Shown piece after piece: positions 1 through 39,951 of a stretch of DNA of 64,000 bases (the stretch's first letter is position 1; every line of letters begins with the position of its first letter). Under the pieces are notes generated by a model. It was given only the letters and a program-made list of their open reading frames with translations, was not told where the DNA came from and did not search any database. Location of the stretch: NCBI GenBank assembly GCA_016871515.1, contig VHDE01000008.1:16829-80828 (forward strand), written 5' to 3'. This DNA comes from Verrucomicrobiota bacterium (lineage in GTDB: Bacteria > Verrucomicrobiota > Verrucomicrobiia > Limisphaerales > SIBE01). The translations under genes and the position numbers were made by a program.

Positions 1-2053
1 CGGCGACGACCTTTTGTTCCATTTCGCGCGGCATCTCTTCGTAGTGGCTGAAGTCCTCGGTATGAATGCCCCGCCCGCCGGTGAGGGACCGAAGGATCGT
101 CGAATAATGGTAAAGTTCCATCTGCGGGACTTGGGCTTTGAGAATTTGAAAACCGTCCGCCGAATCCATGCCGAGAATCTTGCCGCGCCGGCTCGACAGG
201 TCACCCATCACGTTGCCCATGCATTCTTCGGGCACCTGAACTTCGATGGTGTAAATGGGCTCGAGCAACGTCGGCTTGGCTTTTAAGAATGCTTCCTTGA
301 AAGCCTGTTTGCCGGCGATTTGGAACGCGATGTCTTTCGAGTCTACGGGATGCATCTTGCCATCGTAAAAATCGATCTTCACATCAACGACGCGGTAACC
401 CGCGACCACGCCTTCTGCGCACGCCGATTTGACGCCTTTCTCGACTGACGGCACAAAAACGCGATCCACGTTCTGCCCGGCTAACGTTTCGGTGAATTCC
501 ACGTCGGTGTTGCGCGGTTTGGGTTCGATCCGCATCCACACTTCGGCGAACTGGCCGGCGCCGCCCGTTTGTTTCTTGTGGCGGTACTTCGAATCGGCCT
601 TGATCTTGATCGTTTCGCGGTAAGGAATTCTCGGAGCAACGAGATCGAACTCGACCTTGTAACGCCGCCGCAAGCGCTCGGAAATGACCTGCAGATGCAG
701 TTCGCCTTGCCCGGAAATGACGGTTTGGTGCAATTCCGAATCGACGTGGTACAGAAACGTCGGGTCTTCTTCGTGCAACATCGCCAGGCCTTGTGCGATC
801 TTGTCTTCCTCACCTTTGGATTTGAGTTTCAACGCGGCGTGAATGTTCGGTTTGGGGTAATTCACCTTCGGCAACGAGACGTTGCGCTTGTGATGACAAA
901 GGGTGTTGCCGGTGTGCGTATCTTTCAATTTGACGACCGCGCCGAGATCGCCCGCGTGCAGACTGCCGGCCGCTGTGCGGGTCCTGCCGTTGAGGATGTA
1001 AATCTGGCCGATCCGTTCGGTGTTGCTGCGTGAGCTGTTGTAAAGGTCCATCCCAACTTTGATCGAGCCTGAGTACAATCGGAAATAGGACAATTCGCCG
1101 AATTGCGCCTCGCTGATCGTTTTGAAAACATAGAGGACTGGGTCCGGATCGGTCAGAGAAACATCGACTTCCGTGCCGTTGACATCGACTGCTTTGACCT
1201 TCTGCCGGTCCACGGGCGAAGAACCGTACTTGGCGATGAAATCCATCAGACGGGCCACGCCGATGTTCGACTCGGCGGCCGTGCAGAAGAGAGGGATGAA
1301 GGCTTGTTTTTGCACAGCCGCGTGAATGCCCGACCGCATTTCTTCCTCTGACAAACCGCCTTGCTCGAAGAACTTCTCGAGCAACGTGTCGTCAGATTCG
1401 GCGATGTGCTCGATCAATTCCTGGTGCAGCTGTTTGACCTTTTCCTCCCAAGCGCCTGTCGCGGGAGCTTCCTGGTACTTCCCGGCGCCATCGGTTTGGT
1501 AAGTGACGATCTCGCTGCGCAACACATCGAGAACCTGATTGAACCCCGGCCCGGGGTTGACCGGCAAAGTCATGGGAAACACGCGGTCGCCAAACCGTTT
1601 CCGGGCTTGTTCCAAGACTCGATCAAAGCTCGCGTTCTCTTTATTGACCGCGTTAATGACGATCATCTTGGGCAGGCCGTATTGCGTGGCGTAATTCCAA
1701 ACCTTGTCCGTGCCGACTTCGACGCCGTGGTTGGCATGGATCACAACCAGCGCAAAGTCACCGACACGCAGCGCGCCCAGCCCTTCACTGATAAAGTCCA
1801 AGTATCCCGGCGTGTCGATGATGTTGAATTTCTTGCCCTGCCATTCGAGGTGCAACAATGACGCATGAATGGAAATCTGGCGTTCAGGTTCTCCTTCGTG
1901 ATAGTCAGAAACGGTCGTTCCATTAGTGATGATTCCCAACCGATTGATCACGCCCGCGCAGGCCAGCATCGACTCACTGAGCATGGTCTTGCCCGACGAA
2001 GCGTGGCCAACAATTGCAAAATTACGAATGTCTGCGGATTGATACTCTTTCAT
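1..2053 (-). CDS. Elongation factor G paralog (EF-G2/FusA2-like), 3' end runs off the window
   Basis: Manual translation from ATG at 2053: MKEYQSADIRNFAIVGHASSGKT...FNIIDTPGYLDF...GQGELHL...YRETI...KKQTGGAGQFA...LLEPI...GDLSSRRG. Absent from the ORF track because there is no stop inside the window. Confidence 0.93.
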   Translation of the reverse strand, partial: MKEYQSADIRNFAIVGHASSGKTMLSESMLACAGVINRLGIITNGTTVSDYHEGEPERQISIHASLLHLEWQGKKFNIIDTPGYLDFISEGLGALRVGDFALVVIHANHGVEVGTDKVWNYATQYGLPKMIVINAVNKENASFDRVLEQARKRFGDRVFPMTLPVNPGPGFNQVLDVLRSEIVTYQTDGAGKYQEAPATGAWEEKVKQLHQELIEHIAESDDTLLEKFFEQGGLSEEEMRSGIHAAVQKQAFIPLFCTAAESNIGVARLMDFIAKYGSSPVDRQKVKAVDVNGTEVDVSLTDPDPVLYVFKTISEAQFGELSYFRLYSGSIKVGMDLYNSSRSNTERIGQIYILNGRTRTAAGSLHAGDLGAVVKLKDTHTGNTLCHHKRNVSLPKVNYPKPNIHAALKLKSKGEEDKIAQGLAMLHEEDPTFLYHVDSELHQTVISGQGELHLQVISERLRRRYKVEFDLVAPRIPYRETIKIKADSKYRHKKQTGGAGQFAEVWMRIEPKPRNTDVEFTETLAGQNVDRVFVPSVEKGVKSACAEGVVAGYRVVDVKIDFYDGKMHPVDSKDIAFQIAGKQAFKEAFLKAKPTLLEPIYTIEVQVPEECMGNVMGDLSSRRGKILGMDSADGFQILKAQVPQMELYHYSTILRSLTGGRGIHTEDFSHYEEMPREMEQKVVA

Positions 2054-2750: not shown

Positions 2751-2919
2751 TCTGTGCTCCCGAGGGCTTCTCGAGTTCTCGGTGATTCTGCGGCTGTTGC
2801 GCTGCCGAAAGACCGGTCGTAAATCAGGTCGAGATGACTGTGCAGGGCTGGTCTGATTCCTTGAATGTCCTGCGGACAGCAATGTGGGCGGTCCGATGGC
2901 AAAGCGGGCAGTCTCGAAA

Positions 2920-5900
2920 ATGACTTCGATCCAACATGACATCGCAGCCAAAGGCCGAGAGATCTTCGGCCGGATGAATGGCGAAACTCCCCGCTTGTTC
3001 AGCCATCGGAATATCACCGGTCGCTTGCTGGACTGGTCAACGCGCGACGAGCAACTCAAGGTGCAGTTGTTTCGCTTTGTCGATGTGTTGCCTTCATTGA
3101 AGTCATCCGCGGCAATTGCCGAACATGCCTGCCATTATCTTTTAGGCAACGGCGCCAAAGGCTTGCCTGCGGTGGTTCGTTGGGCGATTCGCGTCTCGCC
3201 CCGGTTTCCTTTCATAGCGGCTTTTGCGGCGCGGCAGAGCGTTGCTCAAATGGCCAGGACGTTCATCGTGGCGAGGAATGCTGATGAGGCCGTTCCTGCG
3301 CTGCGTAAGATGAGAAGGCAGCCTTTGGCTTTCACTGCGGACATTCCGGGCGAAACAACGGTGAGCGAAGCGGAAGCGGCAGCTTGCCACGATCGCTATC
3401 TCGAATCGATCGAACGCTTGGCCGAAGAGTCCAAAACCTGGCCGCCGGTCGAACAGATCGATTGCGATGATCGCGGCGAAATTCCGAAGGTTAACGTTTC
3501 CATCAAAATCTCCGCGCTTTACGCGCAGATTCACCCTGCCGACCCGGACCGGGCGCTGATGTGCCTTGCCGACCGCGTTCATCCATTGTTGCGACGCGCC
3601 AAGGAGCTCGGCGTGTTCATTAATCTCGACATGGAGAGCACTGCCCTCAAGGACCTCACTTTAGACCTTTTCAAAACGCTCCTCGACGAACCCGCGCTGC
3701 AGGATTACCCGCACGCTGGCATCGCGCTTCAAGCGTATCTTCGAAGTTCCGAACGTGATCTGGATACGCTGGTTCAATGGGCGGAACAACGCAACCGGCG
3801 CATCACCGTTCGGCTGATCAAGGGGGCCTGCTGGGACCACGAACGCGTCATGGCCCTGCAACGCGGATGGCCAGTGCCCGTATTCGAACGCAAGGCGGAA
3901 ACGGATGCCAATTACGAGCGGCTCGCGCGCCGCATGCCGGAGTGTTCGCGTTACATCGCGCCGGCGTTCGGCACGCACAGCGTTCGCAGCATCGCCAGTT
4001 GCTTGGTGCAAGCCGAGAAGCTTGGATTGCCGCAATCAGGCATTGAAATCCAAATGCTTCACGGGATGGCCGAACCGATCAAGCAAGCGCTCGTCAAGAT
4101 GGGTTATCGCGTCCGAAACTATTGTCCGATTGGCGAAATCCTGCCCGGCATGAGCTATTTGGTGCGCCGTCTCCTTGAAAACACCTCCAGCCAAGGTTTC
4201 CTGCGCGCCACGTTTTCCGAGCATGCCTCACTCGGGGAACTGCTTCGTGATCCCGCGACCACTGCATCTCGGCCGTTGATTGCGAAGAATAGCCAGGCGG
4301 ATCATACTCTGGCCAAGAGCGGCCAGGAATTCACGTTCGCCAATGGTTTGCCGCGGGAACGCCCGACCTCCGATACGATGCATTTTGCCAACGAGCCGCA
4401 CACCGACTTCACCGTCGCCTCGAACCGCGAGCGCATGGCAGCCGCGTTGGCCGCGGTTCGAACTCAATTGGGAAACAAATTCCCGCTCGTCATCGGTGGG
4501 AAAGCTGTCTGGACCACGGAACAGATCGTGTCGGTCAATCCGGCCCGTCCAAGCGAAGTTGTGGGTCGCGTGGCCAAAGCTGGGCAATCGGAAGCCGAAG
4601 CGGCTCTGGCTGCGGCGCGCCAAACCTGCGTCGGATGGGTCTCAACAAGCGTCGACGAACGCGCTCGTTTGCTCGAACGAACCGCCGGCTTAATCCGAGC
4701 AGAACGTTTCGACATCCCTGCGCTGGAAGTATTCGAAACGGGCAAGAGTTGGGTCGAAAGCGACGCCGACGTCGCCGAGGCGATCGATTTCTGCAATTTC
4801 TGCGCTCAGGAAATGCGGCGTATTGCCAGCCACACTTACAGAGTTCCGGGCGAAATAAATCTCCAGCATTACGTCCCGCGTGGGCTCGGTGTGGTGATTG
4901 CACCCTGGAATTTTCCGCTCGCGATTCTTTGCGGGATGACCGCGGCATCAGTCGTAGCGGGCAATTGCGTCATCGTGAAACCCTCCGAACAATCGTCGGT
5001 GATCGGCGCTCGATTCATGGACCTGCTCGTGCGGGCCGGCCTTCCTCCCGGCGTCGTCAATTTCCTGCCCGGGTCCGGTGCGAACATCGAAGCGTTCTTA
5101 GTCGAGCATCCGCAAATCGACTTCATTGCGTTTACCGCTTCGGGTGAAGTTGGCTTGAAAATCTACGAAGCCGCGGGAAGAACGCGGCCCGGCCAAAGGC
5201 AACTGCAGAAAGTTGTCTGTGAAATGGGAGGCAAGAACGCGGTCATTATCGACAGCGATGCCGATTTGGACGAGGCCATACCGGGAGTGATTTATTCAGC
5301 ATTTGGTTACCAGGAACAGAAATGCTCGGCTTTGTCGCGATTGATTGTTTTGCGGGAGAATTACGATCGCGCGCTCGACCGGTTGATCGAAGCTTGCCGC
5401 AGTTTGCAGATTGGGCCGCCGGAAGACCCCGGAACAATCGTCGGGCCGGTTATCGACCAAGAGGCTTTCGAGCGCATCAACCGCTCCATCGAAATAGGCA
5501 AGCAAGAGGCGGAATTAGCCTTTCAGGCTTCCGTGCGCTCGGGAGAAGGTTTTTTGTTCCTCCGACGATTTTCAAGAATGTCTCACCCAAGGCGCGCATC
5601 GCTCAGGAGGAAATCTTCGGGCCGGTTCTCTCTGTGCTGAAAGCCCGCGATCTGAACGAGGCCTTGGCCTGGGCGAATGACAGCGAATATGCGCTTACCG
5701 GAGGATTTTATTCACGCAATCCGGCCAACATCGAAAGCGTGAAACGTGAGATGCAAGTGGGCAATCTTTACATTAACCGCGGGATCACACGCGCATTGGT
5801 GGCGCGCCATCCTTTCGGCGGATTCAAGCTGTTCGGCGGCGGGACCAAAGCGGGCGGACGCGATTACTTGCAACACTGCCTGTTTCCCCGTGTCATTGCG

Positions 5901-6047: not shown

Positions 6048-6689
6048 CTATGGTTCGGCGAGAATTTTAGCCCGTTGTTCGTGATATTCCTGCGGCGTGA
6101 CCTTGTCGGCTCTGTAATCGCGAAGCAAATTCACCAATCGTTCCTGTTTGGTTTTCGGGCCGGGCGGAGTTGTCTCCGGGGGCGCGGCGGCAGGAACTGT
6201 TTCATCCGTTTTTGGCTTCTTAGTTTCGGTCTTGGCCGGCGTCACCTTGGGTTTGCGTGTTGTTTTGGTTTCCTTTAACTCGGGCAGAGTCTCAGATGGC
6301 GCATCCGCCGTTTTTGCAGGGGTCGCTTCTGTGGGGGCGGAAGTTGAGGGCGGTGATTGTGAAGCGCGATCTTTTTCCATTGCGGCACGAAGAGCTTCCA
6401 AAGCCCGCTTCTGGTCCATCGTGTCTGCTTCAACTGGCGCAGGCGGCGGACTAGCCTTTTCCTCGGTTGCCTTTTCTTTGGCTTTTCCGGCAGGCGACTT
6501 TGGTGCAGCCGGTTCGACAGCGGGAACGGCTTTCGTGTCGGCGCCCGGAGTGGCTGCTCGCTCTTCAGCGAGTTTCTGCCTCAAGATTTGCAGCGCCCTT
6601 TGCTGTTGAGCTTCTGTCTCTTGTCCGGAAACCGTCACCAGGCCGATGCTGGCCGCGAAAATAATTGGAACAAACTTGGAGAATTGCAT
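6048..6689 (-). CDS. Secreted Pro/Ala/Lys/Thr-rich hypothetical protein with a short SHOCT-like C-terminal helical domain
   Basis: Signal peptide MQFSKFVPIIFAASIGLVTVSG, low-complexity linkers, C-terminus KQERLVNLLRDYRADKVTPQEYHEQRAKIL. Confidence 0.8.
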   Translation of the reverse strand: MQFSKFVPIIFAASIGLVTVSGQETEAQQQRALQILRQKLAEERAATPGADTKAVPAVEPAAPKSPAGKAKEKATEEKASPPPAPVEADTMDQKRALEALRAAMEKDRASQSPPSTSAPTEATPAKTADAPSETLPELKETKTTRKPKVTPAKTETKKPKTDETVPAAAPPETTPPGPKTKQERLVNLLRDYRADKVTPQEYHEQRAKILAEP

Positions 6690-6762
6690 GGCTTCATTTA
6701 CTCAAGATTCAGTCTGGAGGCAATCGGTTTTCCAGCCAACCGGGCATTAGGACAAAACAAAC

Positions 6763-6790
6763 AAAAAAGCGGGCATCTTGCGACGCCCGC
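6763..6790 (-). terminator. Rho-independent terminator
   Basis: Minus strand GCGGGCGUC-GCAA-GAUGCCCGC-UUUUUU. The GNRA loop and G-U pair only work on this strand. Confidence 0.85.
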
Positions 6791-6898
6791 CCCAACCCAA
6801 ACAACCAAACGTACCTCCTTTCCGCTAATGTAGTTGGCCGACCCTGCTTCAGGAGGGGGATGCCTCCCGCTCAAACCCAGAGAACCAAACAAACTACT
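6763..6898 (-). ncRNA. Candidate small regulatory RNA (~135 nt)
   Basis: Bounded by an ECF-type promoter and a strong terminator. Contains two copies of a GUUUGGUUNUNUGGGUU motif, each followed by a hairpin, and no convincing ORF. Confidence 0.6.
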
Positions 6899-6903
6899 CC
6901 AAT

Positions 6904-6931
6904 GAGACGATGGAGGGTACTTAAATGTTCA
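6904..6931 (-). promoter_or_regulatory. ECF sigma-type promoter
   Basis: Minus strand TGAAC-17 nt-CGTCTC fits the AAC (-35) / CGT (-10) ECF consensus. Confidence 0.55.
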
Positions 6932-7055
6932 AACTTTTTTCGAAAAAGTCGGCGCGGCTCTGCCGTAAATTCGCTCTATCGCAGGGTGAAAGCCCGCCAC
7001 GTGCGCCACGTACATTTCACATTCCGCATTTCCTAATTCTGGGTTAGAGTCTCTT

Positions 7056-8432
7056 ATGCGAATTGTAAATTTGAACCCGGCCAGCGACATCGGAGCGAGC
7101 GCTTGGTTCGTCGATATCGAAGGCCATCGTCTGTTGATGGACGCAGGCACGCACCCCAAGCACGAGGGCCGTGAAAGCTTGCCACTCTACGAATTAGTCA
7201 AGAATGAGTCGCTGGACGCCATCGCCATCACCCATTGCCATCACGACCACGTCGGCTCCTTGCCAGTAGCTCTGCGTTACTTCCCCAAAGCCCATGTCCT
7301 GATGAGCGAATTAAGCTATTTCCTCGTCGAACGCGTCCTCCACAATTCAGTGAATGTTATGATGCGCCAGCGCGACGAATTAGGTATTCGCGAATATCCT
7401 CTGTTCACGCATAACGAGGTGGACGAACTGGCTTACCTCTTTCAGGGCTACAAGTACAATCGCGAGGTCGCGTGGGCGTCCTTTCAGAAAACTCGCGCCG
7501 GTTTCCCGTCGCCGACCTTGGAATTCTTCGACGCCGGCCACGCTCTCGGTTCCGCGGGAGTGATGGTTCGCGGACAGAGACAAACGCTGTTCTATACCGG
7601 CGATGTCTGTTTTCAGGATCAAACTATTCTGAAAGGCGCGCGGTTCGAGGACATCAAAGCGGATGTGCTCATTATGGAAACGACGCGAGGCAATCGCCCA
7701 ATTCCGCCTGGCTTTACGCGCGAAGGCGAAGCGGAACGTCTCGCCCAGGCAATCCAGCGGGTCCTGGAACGGAATGGCTGTGTTCTTATTCCTGTGTTTG
7801 CTTTGGGTCGAACCCAGGAGATTCTGGCTCAGCTCGCATTGCTCATGAACGCCGGCAAAGTACGGAAGCAACCAATCTTTATCGGCGGTCTCGGGCGTGT
7901 TTTTACGGAGATTTACGACCTCGAAGCCCACCGGGCTCACCGGCAACACACCAATCTAATGCTGACCGAAGCGCTGAATCTCAGCGTGCTGGAAAAAGGC
8001 CAGGTTGAAAAAATGCGCCTGTCGGGTGGACGGATCTTTGTGCTGACTGCAGGAATGATGAGCGAAAAGACAGCTGCGCATGACTTGGCCCTCCGCATGA
8101 TCGGAGATGAACGCCAAGCGATCTTCTTCGTTGGCTACGCTGATCCGGACACACCCGGAGGCCGGCTCAAAGCGGCCAAGCCTGGGGAGACATTCTTGCT
8201 CAGCCCGAGCGGCGGTGAGGTCACCAAGCTCTGTGAAGTCCAGGATTTCGACCTGACTGCGCACGCCAATCGCGACGAATTGGTGAAGTTCGTCGGTGAA
8301 GTCGAGCCTCACACCGTGCTCTTAGGCCACGGCGACGAGGAGTCACGACTCTGGTTTCAGGAACAGATCCGAGTGCGGTATCCGAAGATCAAAGTCATCC
8401 AGCCGGCCCCAGGATTAAGGGTGGACGTGTGA
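7056..8432 (+). CDS. MBL-fold metallo-hydrolase, beta-CASP family nuclease (YSH1/CPSF-like)
   Basis: MDAG, THCHHDH, AGHALGS, YTGD, METT, PVFALGRTQE, VGY, AHA and GHG motifs. Confidence 0.9.
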   Translation: MRIVNLNPASDIGASAWFVDIEGHRLLMDAGTHPKHEGRESLPLYELVKNESLDAIAITHCHHDHVGSLPVALRYFPKAHVLMSELSYFLVERVLHNSVNVMMRQRDELGIREYPLFTHNEVDELAYLFQGYKYNREVAWASFQKTRAGFPSPTLEFFDAGHALGSAGVMVRGQRQTLFYTGDVCFQDQTILKGARFEDIKADVLIMETTRGNRPIPPGFTREGEAERLAQAIQRVLERNGCVLIPVFALGRTQEILAQLALLMNAGKVRKQPIFIGGLGRVFTEIYDLEAHRAHRQHTNLMLTEALNLSVLEKGQVEKMRLSGGRIFVLTAGMMSEKTAAHDLALRMIGDERQAIFFVGYADPDTPGGRLKAAKPGETFLLSPSGGEVTKLCEVQDFDLTAHANRDELVKFVGEVEPHTVLLGHGDEESRLWFQEQIRVRYPKIKVIQPAPGLRVDV

Positions 8433-8591: not shown

Positions 8592-11500
8592 GTGCAAGTT
8601 CGCTTTCTGCTCGGGCCGTCAGGGACAGGCAAGACGTTCCGTTGTTTGACGGAAATACGGTCGGCTTTGTTAGCTTCTCCTGCGGGACCGCCGCTGGTTT
8701 TCCTGGCCCCAAAACAAGCGACTTTTCAATTGGAACGACAGTTGCTCGCCGATTCAAGGGTCCCGGGCTACACGCGTTTGCAGATACTTTCGTTTGATCA
8801 GCTCGCCGAATTGATCCTTTCCGGATTCCAACAGAGCCCCGTCCGATTGCTGAACGAAGATGGGCGCCTCATGGTGTTGCGCGCGCTGCTGGCGCAGAAA
8901 CGAAACGAACTGAAACTGTTCCGATCCACGGCCCGTTTGCGCGGTTTTGCCCAGCAACTCAGCGCGGCCCTTCGAGATATTCAACGCTCGCAAGTTCCGC
9001 CGAGCGAACTGATCGCACTCGCCGCAAAAATCGGGTCTGAAACAGCTTTAGGTTGCAAGCTACAGGACGTCGCCACGATGCTTTCGGCGTACCTGGACTG
9101 GCTGCGTGAACATCATTTGCATGACCAGGATTTGCTGGTTGATCTCGCCGCCGAGGCTTTGTCCGAATCCATGGGAGTGCGAACAGCTTCGCCTAAGCCT
9201 TTCTATCAAGCGAAGGAAAGCGCTAGGACCAATGGTCCCGCGCCGCGGCGCCACTTCAGAACATTGCACATTGCCGGCCTATGGTTTGACGGTTTTGCCG
9301 AATTGGCTGCGCAAGAAATAGCCCTCCTCACGGCGTTGCTCCCCTGTTGTGATCGCGCCACGCTCGCGTTTAACCTTGATCGCGAATCGTTGAGCGGTGT
9401 CTCATGGCTTTCCACCTGGTCCGCAGTCGGGCGAACCTTTCAAAAACTTCAACAGCGGCTGGCCGAACAACCGGACACCGACGTGATTGTCGAATGGCTG
9501 GATCGTGCGGAGGGCCAGGGCCGTTTTCGAGAGAATCCCATCCTTCGACATTTGGAAGAAAATTGGGCGCATCCAAAATCTTTTGACAACGCGATGGGAG
9601 CGCGGACTGCCAAGTCCGCGAGCGAAACGGTTGAAACAGCCAAAACGCCCGCGGACGCGGCAGTCCGTGCGCCCGGCGCCGTGTCCAGTCATCCGGCAGA
9701 ATTGGCGGAAACGCTCCGTGCAGCCATTTGTGCGAATCCCGAAGCAGAAGCCACGCTGGCCGCGCGCGAAATCCTGAGATTTGTTCGTTCGGGCGGACGG
9801 TATCGAGATGTGGCCGTTGTCGTTCGCGAACTGGAAAATTATTACGAACCCGTCCGCCGTATTTTGGCGCGTTACGGAATCCCATTTTTCCTCGATCGGC
9901 GCGAGCCAGTCGGACGCCATCCCTTGGCTGAACTGATTCGGAGCGCGCTTCGGACAATTGCGCTCCATTGGCAGCATGAGGATTGGTTTGGCGCATTGAA
10001 AACGGGTCTCGTGCATAATGAGGAAACAGAGATTGATTTCCTCGAGAATGAGGCCCTGGCGCGAGGCTGGAAAGGGGAGGATTGGTTTGGGCCGCTGACA
10101 ATTAAAGACGATCCGCGATTGGCCGACCGGATTGAGAAGTTGCGAATTAAGTTGCTTGCTCCATTTCAGGAACTGATGGAGGCACTGGGCGTTCAAGCCA
10201 ACTTGGGCGCTGCCGAGAGCAGAACGAGTGCTGGGATCAATGGCAATGCACTGGCGGATGCCCTCCGCATTTTTTGGCGGCGTCTGAAGATCGGAGAACA
10301 AATGGCCGAATTGAGCACGGGCTCCGGCAATCCCATGCATGTCACGCTCTGGCGGCAAATGCAGGAGTGGCTCGATAACCTCACTTTGGCCTTTTCTTCC
10401 GAAACGCTCACCTTGCGCGAATGGCTGCCCATTCTGGAGGCCGGCTTGGCCAGCCAAACCGTTGGGGTTATCCCTCCGGCGTTGGACCAGGTTCTCGTCG
10501 GCGCGATTGACCGTTCCCGCAATCCCGATCTCAAACTCGCCATCATTTTGGGAATGAACGAATCGGTTTTTCCGGCCGCACCCACAGGTTCAGCTCTGCT
10601 GACAGATGCTGAACGGGAACAACTTTCCCAACTCGGCGTCGAACTCGGTCAGACCGTCCGGAGCAGGCTGGCTCAGGAACATTACTTGGGATACATTGCC
10701 TGCACTCGCTCCCGGCAGCGGCTCGTCCTTACCTGCGCCAGACGCGACGACAATGAGAACGCTTTGAATCCGTCGCCATTCCTCGCGCATTTGCGGCGTC
10801 TTTTCCCGTCGTTGCAGATTGAGAGTTACGCATCCGGATTCTCCTGGATCGAAAGCGAGCATGTTTGCGAGTTGGCTGGCCCGCTCTGGCGGCGGGCAGC
10901 GGACGAACCGGCGGAAACTGAACCGTTCGCCTCGCTCATCAAGCTTCCGGCTTTTGAACATCTCTGGAAACGACTTGAACATTTGCCAAGGGATGCTGGA
11001 GGGATCGGTCAGTCTCTTTCGCCCGTCTTGGCGGAACGGCTTTACGGCGCCGTGCTGCGAACGTCCGTAAGCGGACTCGAAGAGTTCGCCGCTTGTCCGT
11101 TCAAATTCTTTGTCAGTTCCGGTTTGAAGGCTAAGGAGCGCCAGCGGTTTGAATTGGACGCGCGTGAGCAAGGAAGCTTTCAGCATGAAATCCTGGCGCG
11201 TTTTCACCGGCAATTGCGGACGGAGGGCAAACGTTGGCGAGAACTCACCCCGGACGAGGCGCGCGAACGCATCGGCCAAATTGCCGAGGAAATTATCCCC
11301 AACTACCGCGATGGGTTGCTTCAAGCGAGCGGCCAAGCCAATTTTGCGGCCCGCAGTCTAACCGCGTCGCTGCAAAGTTTCATCCATACGATTATCGGTT
11401 GGATGGCCCAGTATCAGTTCGATCCTTACGCTGTCGAACTGGCGTTCGGCATCGAGGAGAAGCCGCTGCCCGCTTGGGATTTGGACTTGGGCAAAGGACA

Positions 11501-12152
11501 TTCCCTTTCATTGCGAGGCAAGATCGACCGCGTCGATTTATGGCGGCGGCCTGAAGCGGACGAAGCGTTTTGCGTGGTCATCGACTATAAATCGAGCGCC
11601 CGAAAGCTTGATCCGCTTCTGCTGGCGCATGGCATTCAACTGCAGTTGCCGGCCTATTTAAACGTCTTGCGCGGCCTTTCCAATCCGCGCTCGATTTTTG
11701 GAGTTGGCCGGCTGATTCCGGCGGGCGTCTTCTTTGTCAACCTGCGCGGCGCTTACGACGGGGCCAAAACACGGCAGGAAGTGTTCGAACGCTTCGCCGA
11801 CGCACGCAAATCCGCCTACCGCCATGCAGGCCGGTTTGATGCGGAATTGCGGACTAAGCTCGACTCGCGTGCCGGGGTCGATGAGGGCGATCAGTTTAGT
11901 TACCGGCTTGCCGGCAATGGCGCCATCCACGGCTCATGCCGCGAACCGATGACAGCACACGACTTCGCGACGATGCTTGACGCGGTCGAAGGCCATCTGC
12001 GCCGGATGGGGCAGGCGATCTACGCGGGCGAAGCAAAACCGGACCCGTACCGCAAGGGCTTTGATTTGCCCTGTCAGAGATGCGTTTATCAGTCTATCTG
12101 CCGCATTGATCCGTGGACGCATTCCTACCGGGTCTTGCGAAAGATTGGGTAG
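8592..12152 (+). CDS. addB: ATP-dependent helicase/nuclease subunit B (AddB-like, PD-(D/E)XK nuclease)
   Basis: N-terminal GPSGTGKT; SVSGLEEFAACPFKFF; RGKIDRVD; VIDYKS; QLPAY; C-terminal CQRCVYQSIC completing four Fe-S cysteines. Confidence 0.88.
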   Translation: MQVRFLLGPSGTGKTFRCLTEIRSALLASPAGPPLVFLAPKQATFQLERQLLADSRVPGYTRLQILSFDQLAELILSGFQQSPVRLLNEDGRLMVLRALLAQKRNELKLFRSTARLRGFAQQLSAALRDIQRSQVPPSELIALAAKIGSETALGCKLQDVATMLSAYLDWLREHHLHDQDLLVDLAAEALSESMGVRTASPKPFYQAKESARTNGPAPRRHFRTLHIAGLWFDGFAELAAQEIALLTALLPCCDRATLAFNLDRESLSGVSWLSTWSAVGRTFQKLQQRLAEQPDTDVIVEWLDRAEGQGRFRENPILRHLEENWAHPKSFDNAMGARTAKSASETVETAKTPADAAVRAPGAVSSHPAELAETLRAAICANPEAEATLAAREILRFVRSGGRYRDVAVVVRELENYYEPVRRILARYGIPFFLDRREPVGRHPLAELIRSALRTIALHWQHEDWFGALKTGLVHNEETEIDFLENEALARGWKGEDWFGPLTIKDDPRLADRIEKLRIKLLAPFQELMEALGVQANLGAAESRTSAGINGNALADALRIFWRRLKIGEQMAELSTGSGNPMHVTLWRQMQEWLDNLTLAFSSETLTLREWLPILEAGLASQTVGVIPPALDQVLVGAIDRSRNPDLKLAIILGMNESVFPAAPTGSALLTDAEREQLSQLGVELGQTVRSRLAQEHYLGYIACTRSRQRLVLTCARRDDNENALNPSPFLAHLRRLFPSLQIESYASGFSWIESEHVCELAGPLWRRAADEPAETEPFASLIKLPAFEHLWKRLEHLPRDAGGIGQSLSPVLAERLYGAVLRTSVSGLEEFAACPFKFFVSSGLKAKERQRFELDAREQGSFQHEILARFHRQLRTEGKRWRELTPDEARERIGQIAEEIIPNYRDGLLQASGQANFAARSLTASLQSFIHTIIGWMAQYQFDPYAVELAFGIEEKPLPAWDLDLGKGHSLSLRGKIDRVDLWRRPEADEAFCVVIDYKSSARKLDPLLLAHGIQLQLPAYLNVLRGLSNPRSIFGVGRLIPAGVFFVNLRGAYDGAKTRQEVFERFADARKSAYRHAGRFDAELRTKLDSRAGVDEGDQFSYRLAGNGAIHGSCREPMTAHDFATMLDAVEGHLRRMGQAIYAGEAKPDPYRKGFDLPCQRCVYQSICRIDPWTHSYRVLRKIG
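9596..9674. repeat. Palindromic REP-doublet-like element lying in frame inside addB
   Basis: GGGAGCGCGGACTGCC-AA-GTCCGCG...CGCGGAC-GC-GGCAGTCCGTGCGCCC inverted repeat; each arm is itself a small hairpin. Confidence 0.75.
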
Positions 12153-22192: not shown

Positions 22193-22268
22193 GCCCATGT
22201 AGCTCAGCCGGCAGAGCGCGTCCTTGGTAAGGACGAGGTCATCAGTTCAATCCTGATCATGGGCTCCA
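22193..22268 (+). tRNA. tRNA-Thr(GGT)
   Basis: Cloverleaf GCCCATG...CATGGGC-T-CCA; anticodon loop TTGGTAA; GTTCAA T-loop. Confidence 0.96.
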
Positions 22269-22309
22269 TTTGTCCGAAAGAAGAAACTATTTAAAACCAG
22301 GAATACGCA

Positions 22310-23500
22310 ATGGCAAAAGAAGCCTTTCAAAGAACAAAGCCACACGTAAATGTGGGTACGATTGGTCACGTTGATCATGGCAAATCAACTCTCACCGCCG
22401 CAATTGTCGCGGTCCAATCTCGAAAAGGATTGGCGAAGCCGATCTCATACGCGGATATTACCAAGGGCGGGACTGTTCGCGATGCAACCAAGACGGTGAC
22501 TATCGCTGTCTCGCACGTGGAATACGAGAGCGACACGAGGCACTATGCTCACGTCGACTGTCCGGGCCATGCGGATTATGTGAAGAACATGATTACAGGC
22601 GCGGCGCAGATGGACGGCGCCATTTTAGTCGTGAGTGCCGCGGACGGGCCAATGCCACAAACGCGCGAACACATTCTTTTGGCGCGTCAGGTTGGTGTTC
22701 CTGCCGTCGTGGTTTATCTGAACAAGATCGATTTAGTGGACGATCCAGAGTTGCTGGAGTTGGTTGAGATGGAAATCCGCGACTTGCTGAACAAATACCA
22801 GTTTCCTGGGGATACGACGCCAGTGGTTCGAGGGAGTTCGAGCGCTGCCTTGGCTGGAAAACCTGAGGGTGAGAAATCGATTCAGGATCTGATGAATGCC
22901 ATTGATGCGGCGATCCCGCTTCCAACGCGTGAAGTGGATAAACCATTTCTGATGTGTATTGAAGACGTATTCAATATTGAAGGCCGCGGAACCGTGGTAA
23001 CTGGTCGCGTGGAGCGTGGCGAATTGAACAAGATGTCTGACGTTGAGATTGTTGGCTTGCGTGAGACGCGCAAGACAGTAGCGACGGACATTGAAATGTT
23101 CCGCAAACTGCTCGATAAGGCGAGCGCTGGCGATAACGTCGGAGTGCTCCTTCGAGGCACCAAAAAAGATGAGGTGGAACGCGGCATGGTTTTGGCGAAG
23201 CCAGGGAGTATAACTCCGCACACACACTTTAAGGCGGAGGTATATGTGTTGTCTAAAGAGGAAGGCGGGCGGCATACTCCGTTCTTCACCAATTACCGTC
23301 CACAGTTTTATTTCCGGACGAGTGATGTGACCGGAACGATAACCTTGCCGCAAGGCGTGGAAATGGTGATGCCTGGTGATAATGTGGCCTCAGAGATCAA
23401 GCTTATCGCCCCTGTCGCAATGGAAAAGGGCCAGCGATTTGCCATTCGAGAAGGTGGACGGACGATTGGTGCTGGCCGTATCAGTGACATTATTGAGTAG
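22310..23500 (+). CDS. tuf: Elongation factor Tu
   Basis: [35 protein letters not shown]. Confidence 0.98.
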
Positions 23501-23527
23501 TACGAACAGCGTGAAAAGGCAATTTGT

Positions 23528-23603
23528 AGGGCGGTAGCTCAATTGGTAGAGTAGCGGTCTCCAAAACCGTCGGTTGTGGGTTCGAGTCCCTCCCGCCCTG
23601 CCA
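23528..23603 (+). tRNA. tRNA-Trp(CCA)
   Basis: AGGGCGG...CCGCCCT-G-CCA; anticodon loop CTCCAAA. Confidence 0.96.
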
Positions 23604-23618
23604 AAAGGGTATCGAGCC

Positions 23619-23707
23619 GGAGGGGTGGCAGAGTGGTCTATCGCGACGGTCTTGAAAACCGTTAAGGCTAAACACCTTCGGGGGTTCGAATCCCTCCCCC
23701 TCCGCCA
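23619..23707 (+). tRNA. tRNA-Ser(TGA)
   Basis: GGAGGGG...CCCCTCC-G-CCA; anticodon loop CTTGAAA; long variable arm. Confidence 0.95.
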
Positions 23708-39324: not shown

Positions 39325-39951
39325 ATGAAACTGACGATTAAAGATATACAAGGGAATAACCAGGGCGAGTTGGATGTGAAGTTCCCGATCATCGAGGATG
39401 GCCGAGGCACCCAAGCCGTGCACGATGTTGTGGTTGCTTATCAAGCGGCTCAACGCAGCGGCACAGCTTGCACCAAAACGATGGGTGAAGTGGCCGGCTC
39501 CGGGAAAAAACCGTGGCGGCAGAAAGGCACCGGTCGCGCGCGCGCCGGTTCGTTTGCTTCTCCGCTTTGGCGTGGCGGTGGTGTTGTATTCGGGCCGAAA
39601 CCTCGCGATCACGGCAAGAAAGTTTCTAAGTCCACGAAGCAACTGGCTTTTCGCAAGGCGCTCAGCGAGCGATTGAAAGCGGGAGATGTGTTCGTGCTGG
39701 ACGACCTCAAGTTGAGCTCGCCCAAAACGAAAGAGTTCTTGCGCGTGCTGTCGGCGCTGCAAATCACCGGAACGACTTTGGTCGTTGCTCCGAGCGTCGA
39801 TCAGAATTTGATTTTGGCTTCACGCAATGTCCCAAACGTCGAGCTGACCACCAGTGACGCGTTGAATACTTACGAAGTGCTGCGGTTCGGCAAACTGGTT
39901 TTTACCCGAGGCGCGTTTGAAAAGGTCGAGCAACGTTTGGCTGCCGAGTAA
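39325..39951 (+). CDS. rplD: 50S ribosomal protein L4
   Basis: KPWRQKGTGRARAG. Confidence 0.97.
   Translation: MKLTIKDIQGNNQGELDVKFPIIEDGRGTQAVHDVVVAYQAAQRSGTACTKTMGEVAGSGKKPWRQKGTGRARAGSFASPLWRGGGVVFGPKPRDHGKKVSKSTKQLAFRKALSERLKAGDVFVLDDLKLSSPKTKEFLRVLSALQITGTTLVVAPSVDQNLILASRNVPNVELTTSDALNTYEVLRFGKLVFTRGAFEKVEQRLAAE

Follow-up and report, generated by a model that had tools for sequence, protein, structure and literature searches.

RybB, MicA, MicL and VrrA are proteobacterial small RNAs (sRNAs) whose expression depends on the ECF sigma factor sigma-E. GcvB targets C/A-rich enhancers through its GU-rich R1 seed, and PrrF1/PrrF2 and Qrr are tandem multicopy sRNA families. The locus analyzed here lies in a 64-kb stretch of verrucomicrobial DNA (the window), taken from a genome of 5.73 Mb in 246 contigs that is 92.46% complete (the source genome; its order is referred to as the own order). 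It resembles the sigma-E-dependent sRNAs in that it is a small gene predicted to stand alone, that its ECF-type promoter is near consensus, and that it has a short conserved single-stranded stretch that may act as a seed and an intrinsic terminator; as with those sRNAs, its promoter is the best genomic match to the promoter motif. It differs from them in that the presumed seed lies near the 3ˊ end, before the terminator, rather than at the 5ˊ end, in showing no sequence or structure homology to them by Rfam, and in belonging to another phylum, in whose representative here, at the completeness given, Hfq (PF17209) was not found. Like GcvB, it has a conserved single-stranded G/U-rich stretch that would favor C/A-rich targets; unlike GcvB, it has no Rfam GcvB match, does not lie beside gcvA, has an ECF-type rather than a GcvA-dependent promoter, and gave no targets in the searches described below. 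In one genome of the own order (G059) three head-to-tail copies, each with a promoter and a terminator, recall the PrrF1/PrrF2 and Qrr arrangement, whereas all other genomes searched are single-copy.

No Rfam family, RybB, MicA and GcvB included, reached its gathering score either in the window region (E≤10) or in 10 orthologous loci (E≤1), a check that the initial annotation of this DNA had proposed for novelty. The only model scoring on the sRNA was L20_leader (RF00558; 21.6 bits against a gathering score of 58.7, E 0.22), which shares the order of hairpin, spacer and G+C-rich terminator with U-run; however, the score comes mainly from the terminator and the L20/infC operon is not downstream of the sRNA. 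A 20-bit snoRNA match elsewhere in one fetched locus (L030) is irrelevant to the sRNA. Our literature search on small RNAs and structured non-coding RNA motifs of Verrucomicrobia and Akkermansia found no description of this sRNA, and no description of a regulatory sRNA of this kind in Verrucomicrobiota. Judged by comparative sequence analysis, the locus is a real and conserved small RNA gene that has an ECF-type promoter and had not been described before.

Organization of the locus

The 5ˊ end of the predicted RNA is placed near a conserved GUAG, 8-9 nt past CGTC, and its 3ˊ end at a run of six U residues. The features of the locus, in window coordinates, are listed below.

6690-7055: intergenic region between two divergent genes, hosting the sRNA gene on the minus strand
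6933..6946, minus strand: A/T-rich, UP-like tract directly upstream of the -35 element; its A-rich positions are conserved in the weight matrix of 42 promoters (consensus AAAAATTTTTGAACAA)
6932-6927, minus strand: -35-like TTGAAC, followed by a 17-nt spacer
6909-6904, minus strand: -10-like CGTCTC, CGTC(TC), from sequence reading, ortholog comparison and the matrix
6898-6763, minus strand: predicted sRNA of ~136 nt, ends inferred from promoter geometry and terminator
6897-6894, minus strand: GUAG at the start of the predicted RNA
6890-6866, minus strand: GU-rich 5ˊ module, repeat copy 1 (GUUUGGUUCUCUGGGUUUGAGCGGG), 84% identical to 6786-6810
6869-6850, minus strand: hairpin P1 (CGGGAGG / CCUCCUG), from the MFE fold
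6841-6821, minus strand: hairpin P3, imperfect in the window copy (about 6 of 9 pairs)
6821-6813, minus strand: Shine-Dalgarno (SD)-like AAAGGAGGU
6810-6794, minus strand: GUUUGGUUGUUUGGGUU, near-invariant single-stranded 17-mer, the presumed seed
6810-6786, minus strand: repeat copy 2 (GUUUGGUUGUUUGGGUUGGGGCGGG) of the 25-nt direct repeat, 21 of 25 positions identical, the copies 80 nt apart
6790-6763, minus strand: intrinsic terminator GCGGGCGUC-loop-GAUGCCCGC, stem 6790-6769, U6 at 6768-6763
6689-6048, minus strand: downstream ORF of 213 aa (the 6689 gene)
7056..8432, plus strand: divergent neighbor, a 458-aa MBL/beta-CASP/RMMBL ribonuclease-like, CPSF-like protein (Pfam)

The initial annotation had described a minus-strand promoter, with the -35 element read as TGAAC from 6931, ahead of an RNA of ~135 nt that ends in a terminator with six U residues and carries a 21/25 internal repeat with a perfect SD-like motif between its two modules; each of these elements is present. 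The terminator was also called at 6793-6766, as a 12-pair stem (7 G-C) with a 4-nt loop followed by a T-run. Within 6500-7300 no sigma-70-like promoter was predicted. The 213-aa ORF has no Pfam or NCBIfam match, and the NCBIfam matches of the 458-aa beta-CASP protein fall under their cut-offs. Elsewhere in the window are a PutA-type proline dehydrogenase/aldehyde dehydrogenase fusion, an AddB-like nuclease and three tRNA genes (2884-5640, 8592-12152 and 22193-23704, all on the plus strand).

Taken by itself, the window copy stays within chance expectation, with a fold z-score of -1.36 (23 of 200 shuffles fold equally well) and one terminator-like site against 1.2 expected from shuffles. It is conservation that raises the sRNA above chance: BLAST matches in 21 of 60 relatives, covariance-model matches in 78 of 151 genomes, and covariation that beats 500 of 500 shuffles.

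Promoter class

In the portion of PMC5758882 consulted, AAC at -35 and CGT at -10 are given as common to ECF promoters, with several ECF sigma factors recognizing CGTC. Akkermansia housekeeping promoters, in the part of PMC4782308 consulted, have a -35 element and a TATAAT box. By the definition in that portion of PMC5758882, the sRNA promoter is of the ECF type, with AAC in the -35 element, CGT/CGTC in the -10 element and a spacer of 16-17 nt. The initial annotation had assigned it to this class, and the orthologs agree: 43 of 52 distinct loci have (T/A)TGAA(C/G)-N16-17-(C/A)GTC, its two elements at a fixed spacing, 104-140 nt upstream of the motif, where ~1 is estimated by chance, and 30 of those 43 promoters match all ten specified bases. 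The weight matrix of 42 orthologous promoters has the consensus AAAAAtTTTGAACAa ... aGCGTCTGA, and GUAG often resumes 8-9 nt past CGTC in orthologous loci. We take this promoter to resemble the RpoE/AlgU motif (GAAC ... TCTGA).

A scan of the source genome for the same motif had also been suggested by the initial annotation. When the window was left out of the matrix, the sRNA promoter scored 33.2 bits and the next best site in the genome 20.5. The strict motif is not enriched there (10 matches against ~17 expected). The other matrix sites in the genome are weak and mostly intragenic, and none lies upstream of a sigma gene. Since the motif is essentially unique in the source genome, the sRNA could not be linked to any ECF regulon or autoregulated sigma gene. 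The promoter is nevertheless real and special, and of the ECF type as far as its sequence tells.

Conservation and distribution

Of 60 relatives compared by BLAST, 21 gave a match at E≤1e-5, among them 11 of the 12 same-family genomes; beyond the genus, the alignable part shrinks to the 3ˊ ~60 nt, at 80-95% identity. A covariance model built from 54 sequences (model R2; threshold E≤1e-3) recovered the sRNA in 78 of 151 own-order genomes and in 60 of the 110 high-quality ones, with one copy per positive genome except G059; the single copy in the source genome scores 78.9 bits. Presence is consistent within families (three of three genomes in f2, f8, f13 and f14, none of three in f5 and f9-f12, for example). 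Weak R2 hits are validated where they stand back to back with the beta-CASP gene. At least one genome that R2 scored negative, G018, holds a longer, diverged homolog (L233, C30:20152-20682) with a TTGAACA-N16-CGTCT promoter, GAUUGUUUGGGUUGG and a long terminator upstream of its beta-CASP gene, so the positive rate of 52% is a lower bound. In the rest of the phylum (150 genomes) R2 found no real copy; a single 28-bit match (in G135) was rejected, since it reads by eye, untranslated, as a coding stretch. Within one order of Verrucomicrobia, the predicted sRNA is passed down as a unit in single copy.

Each of the three tandem copies in G059, a one-contig genome, has its own terminator and its own ECF-like promoter, ATGAAC/TGTAAC-N16-CGTC (L030 1380-1880; C1:3203600-3204009 in the genome). 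The SD-like element is absent from all three, and GGUUGUUUGGGUU, the GU core of the motif, is kept in two, the middle copy being degraded.

Among the matches listed by an exact scan with the 17-mer (one genome per species), a set biased toward the unchanged motif, the record titles of the added loci are mostly Verrucomicrobia or Verrucomicrobiota MAGs. In the unbiased set of 22 real BLAST-derived loci, GUUUGGUUGUUUGGGUU is exact in 13 and differs at one to three positions in most others. No convincing sRNA was found on 22 viral contigs carrying the 17-mer (the best, L173, scored 22 bits), and a phage origin was rejected on that count. Five further contigs with the sRNA (L039, L041, L045, L064 and L078) come from MAGs titled Cyanophyceae, Limnocylindria, Methylomirabilota and Kapaibacterium; L045 and L078 also have the divergent beta-CASP gene, at 75-77% identity to that of the window. 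The five contigs are probably mis-binned verrucomicrobial DNA.

Two small Patescibacteria genomes, with records titled Taylorbacteria and Saccharibacteria, contain a block of hairpin-AAAGGAGGU-N3-GUUUGGUUGUUUGGGUU-terminator (L048 ~1370-1550, plus strand; L062 ~1467-1640, minus strand; 52.9 and 50.6 bits with R2). There the promoters of the block are sigma-70-like, and its neighbors are a DNA polymerase III delta'-like gene on one side and frr-rseP on the other. It was absent from 150 further genomes of that phylum. Horizontal transfer is suggested for the Patescibacteria copies.

RNA architecture and covariation

Across loci the order of elements is conserved: the 5ˊ domain, variable and often beginning with GUAGUUUGGUU, then the hairpin that covaries, AAAGGAGGU, a gap of 2-4 nt, GUUUGGUUGUUUGGGUU and the terminator. 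Hairpin P3 could not be aligned by MAFFT alone; a covariance model (R1) was therefore seeded with seven sequences of equal geometry (alignment A4) and all matches were aligned to it (A5/A6). Covariation was computed on the 57 distinct rows of A5, an alignment fitted to the model, which favors structure. In it, 96.5% of cells are in standard pairs, compared with 77.8% in shuffles (none of 500 reaching the observed value) and ~43% when the partners are shifted against each other. Of the 16 modeled pairs, 14 show compensatory changes; motif conservation and stem covariation had been proposed as a check by the initial annotation. The changes fall in seven of seven pairs of P3 (92.5% of cells paired) and in seven of nine pairs of the terminator (99.4% paired), a G+C-rich stem-loop with a U-run. 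The stem arms differ as words between lineages, as in CCGCCAG/UUGGCGG, UGACUG/CAGUCA and GCCGAAAUG/CAUUUCGGU.

P3 of the relatives is a 5-11 bp stem adjoining AAAGGAGG. The window copy of this hairpin (6821-6841, minus strand) has two to three mismatches, and the same-genus loci L009 and L010 have a perfect 9-bp stem; the mismatches may reflect either genuine weakening of the stem or a fault in the assembly. P1 is variable across the order, and same-genus loci have a hairpin at the same position made of other letters.

The GU-rich 3ˊ motif is, on the alignments, the most conserved element of the predicted RNA, and its core is retained in the copies that have diverged most. The SD-like element is kept as A(A/G)AGG(A/G)GG in most loci and is degenerate or absent in L023-L027, L030, L087 and L096. 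It is conserved though its upstream CCUCC partner occurs only in a subset of loci, and structure thus does not explain its conservation.

Two details of the initial annotation belong to the lineage of the window. The duplicated module is present there, but its 5ˊ copy is only partly conserved: by eye, the 5ˊ end is GU-rich in about half of the loci, with no such stretch in several. Likewise, the words GUAGUU (6897-6892) and AACUAC (6835-6830), which had been said to pair, both exist, but their pairing is absent from the MFE fold and is not kept in relatives; same-genus relatives read AACCAUG or AACCGUG where the window has AACUAC. The core idea of the earlier reading holds, and the duplicated motif and the 5ˊ/internal pairing are lineage-specific details.

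Proposed function and target searches

The best reading of the locus, and one that we hold to be just on the probable side, is a trans-acting regulatory sRNA that is ECF-sigma-driven and uses its GU-rich stretch as a seed. An ECF sigma factor, released under envelope or other stress, would transcribe the sRNA; the seed would pair with C/A-rich stretches of several mRNAs, G-U wobble allowed, and the pairing would alter translation or stability of these targets. Constraint from many targets is proposed as the reason why the seed is nearly unchanged across more than 50 families.

The sequencing runs listed for this DNA include none of RNA. Exact complements of at least 10 nt number 91 in the source genome and form no coherent gene set. 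Three copies of a ~60-nt repeat, CTAAATCAAAACAACCAAC...GGCAGGGCGCGTCACTCCGTGCGCGCCGTC, contain a 10-nt complement of the motif (contig C12, ~39480-39560; C159, ~2100-2230; C164, ~850-950), and were rejected as target genes because they are repeat copies and not genes. Four paralogous genes have GGTTGTTTGGGG on their sense strand (C26:19645, C69:16668, C71:11468 and C92:3544), in a stretch that translates by eye to ...TLVVWGGEFGRTP, presumably a DUF1501-type motif; these matches have the orientation of the sRNA core itself and cannot pair with it, and the four paralogs were rejected as targets. A contiguous-helix scan near the starts of source-genome genes gave no enrichment over 12 shuffled seeds, with start calls that are crude and codon periodicity that persists upstream of them. 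The exact 13-mer complement occurs in 89 rows over the 151 genomes, of which 39, by hand count, are the sRNA genes themselves; the remaining 50 are similar to a backwards control whose total was estimated rather than summed. Duplexes of the seed with the beta-CASP translation start average -14.0 kcal/mol, no better than the -13.2 kcal/mol of shuffled seeds. Simple seed pairing does not explain the conservation of AAAGGAGGU.

Alternative explanations

The RNA might be a leader or attenuator that acts in cis on the gene downstream of it, here the 6689 gene, as the initial annotation had itself considered in the form of a mere 5ˊ UTR. The 73 nt between the terminator and the 6689 start lack a predicted sigma-70 promoter, so that read-through could feed the gene, and in both Patescibacteria genomes the element is always upstream of frr. 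Against this, a homolog of the 213-aa protein lies beside none of the orthologous loci, whose downstream genes have unrelated functions (PGK, PgpA, an MFS transporter, a CN-hydrolase and an M16 peptidase) and are convergent in several cases; the constant, related, same-strand downstream genes of riboswitches and cis-leaders are not seen. Because the downstream genes vary and are sometimes convergent, the sRNA is not the leader of the 6689 gene; the leader reading is largely refuted for Verrucomicrobia and overall very improbable. Translation of the RNA itself, into a tiny protein (MVVWV...) from a UUG 5 nt from the SD-like sequence, finds an open frame in the window (ORF 6698-6892), but no locus has a stop codon in this frame ahead of the terminator, 1-nt indels between motif and terminator shift the frame among relatives, and the motif is invariant at every codon position, all of which leaves this idea scarcely credible. 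With its own ECF-class promoter and intrinsic terminator, conserved within the order, 6898-6763 on the minus strand is a predicted stand-alone gene for a non-coding RNA of ~136 nt, in keeping with the independent, unannotated gene first proposed.

Other readings accept such a gene and give it another partner than a set of mRNAs. As a protein- or ribosome-binding decoy or sponge, the RNA would use AAAGGAGGU and its U/G-rich tail to titrate 30S subunits or an RNA-binding protein under stress, the perfect anti-anti-SD sequence binding the 3ˊ end of 16S rRNA in the 30S subunit. The failure to find an mRNA target signal, the conservation of AAAGGAGGU as a sequence in most loci while a CCUCC partner is limited to a subset, and the recurrence of the 26-nt block AAAGGAGGU-N3-GUUUGGUUGUUUGGGUU in two Patescibacteria genomes, for which a universal partner, the ribosome for instance, would account, all speak for it. 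We consider it unlikely all the same: the SD-like element is degenerate or missing in the true homologs L023-L027, L087 and L096 and in all G059 copies, which keep the GU core, a neighboring CCUCC is able to sequester GGAGG in about one third of the loci, and the rarity of the block in Patescibacteria fits horizontal transfer better than a universal partner. A titration of CsrA, with the GGA in AAAGGAGG and further GGA motifs as binding sites, has next to no likelihood. CsrA is encoded in the source genome (79.5 bits) and some homologs have three to five GGA motifs (L040, for example), but across 151 genomes the two do not co-occur (both in 44, sRNA only in 34, CsrA only in 37, neither in 36), the genomes with the sRNA and without CsrA include one-contig G059, and the single conserved GGA lies outside a loop, unlike the sites of CsrB/Rsm-type RNAs. 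The divergent CPSF-like beta-CASP ribonuclease offers a third partner, whether through shared or overlapping promoter control, antisense to the RNase 5ˊ UTR, or joint action on RNase targets. By hand comparison of coordinates, with weak model hits taken in, the two genes stand back to back in 49 of 78 positive genomes with gaps of ~50-480 nt, and tblastn on the fetched loci found the beta-CASP gene beside the sRNA in 28 of 64, in the same orientation in all 28. At L021, L067 and L103 no more than about 15-25 nt lie between the -35 element of the sRNA and the start codon of the RNase, so the RNase promoter must overlap the sRNA promoter or sit inside the sRNA gene on the other strand. Yet the RNase is near-universal (142 of 151 own-order genomes) while the sRNA occurs in about half, the RNase gene is preceded by other DNA in 19 of 20 sRNA-negative genomes, 29 of the 78 sRNA genes are located elsewhere, and the seed pairs with the RNase translation start no better than shuffled seeds do. 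The adjacency may be ancestral synteny or a functional link; as it may be merely ancestral, a functional partnership or local regulation seems distinctly unlikely. A more elaborate version, which we regard as a long shot, would make the sRNA the RNA half of a pair with the adjacent RNase: the GU stretch and the SD mimic would pick out transcripts that are C/A-rich or mRNAs bound by ribosomes and pass them on to the RNase, giving an Hfq-free, ECF-switched decay, and the 26-nt block would have moved horizontally to Patescibacteria, upstream of the ribosome recycling factor gene.

Significance

The sRNA family is a well-defined first candidate: it is single-copy, has a clear promoter and terminator and strong covariation, and can be recognized in genomes by model R2 and a 17-nt signature. 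Read as an ECF-driven, trans-acting regulator, it could be used to test whether a stress circuit of the proteobacterial type, in which an ECF sigma factor acts on mRNAs through an sRNA, had an independent origin in the PVC group, and how an sRNA acts where Hfq is not detectable. It could also reveal which ECF sigma factor recognizes TTGAACA-N16-17-CGTCT, for which the near-unique sRNA promoter would be a clean reporter.
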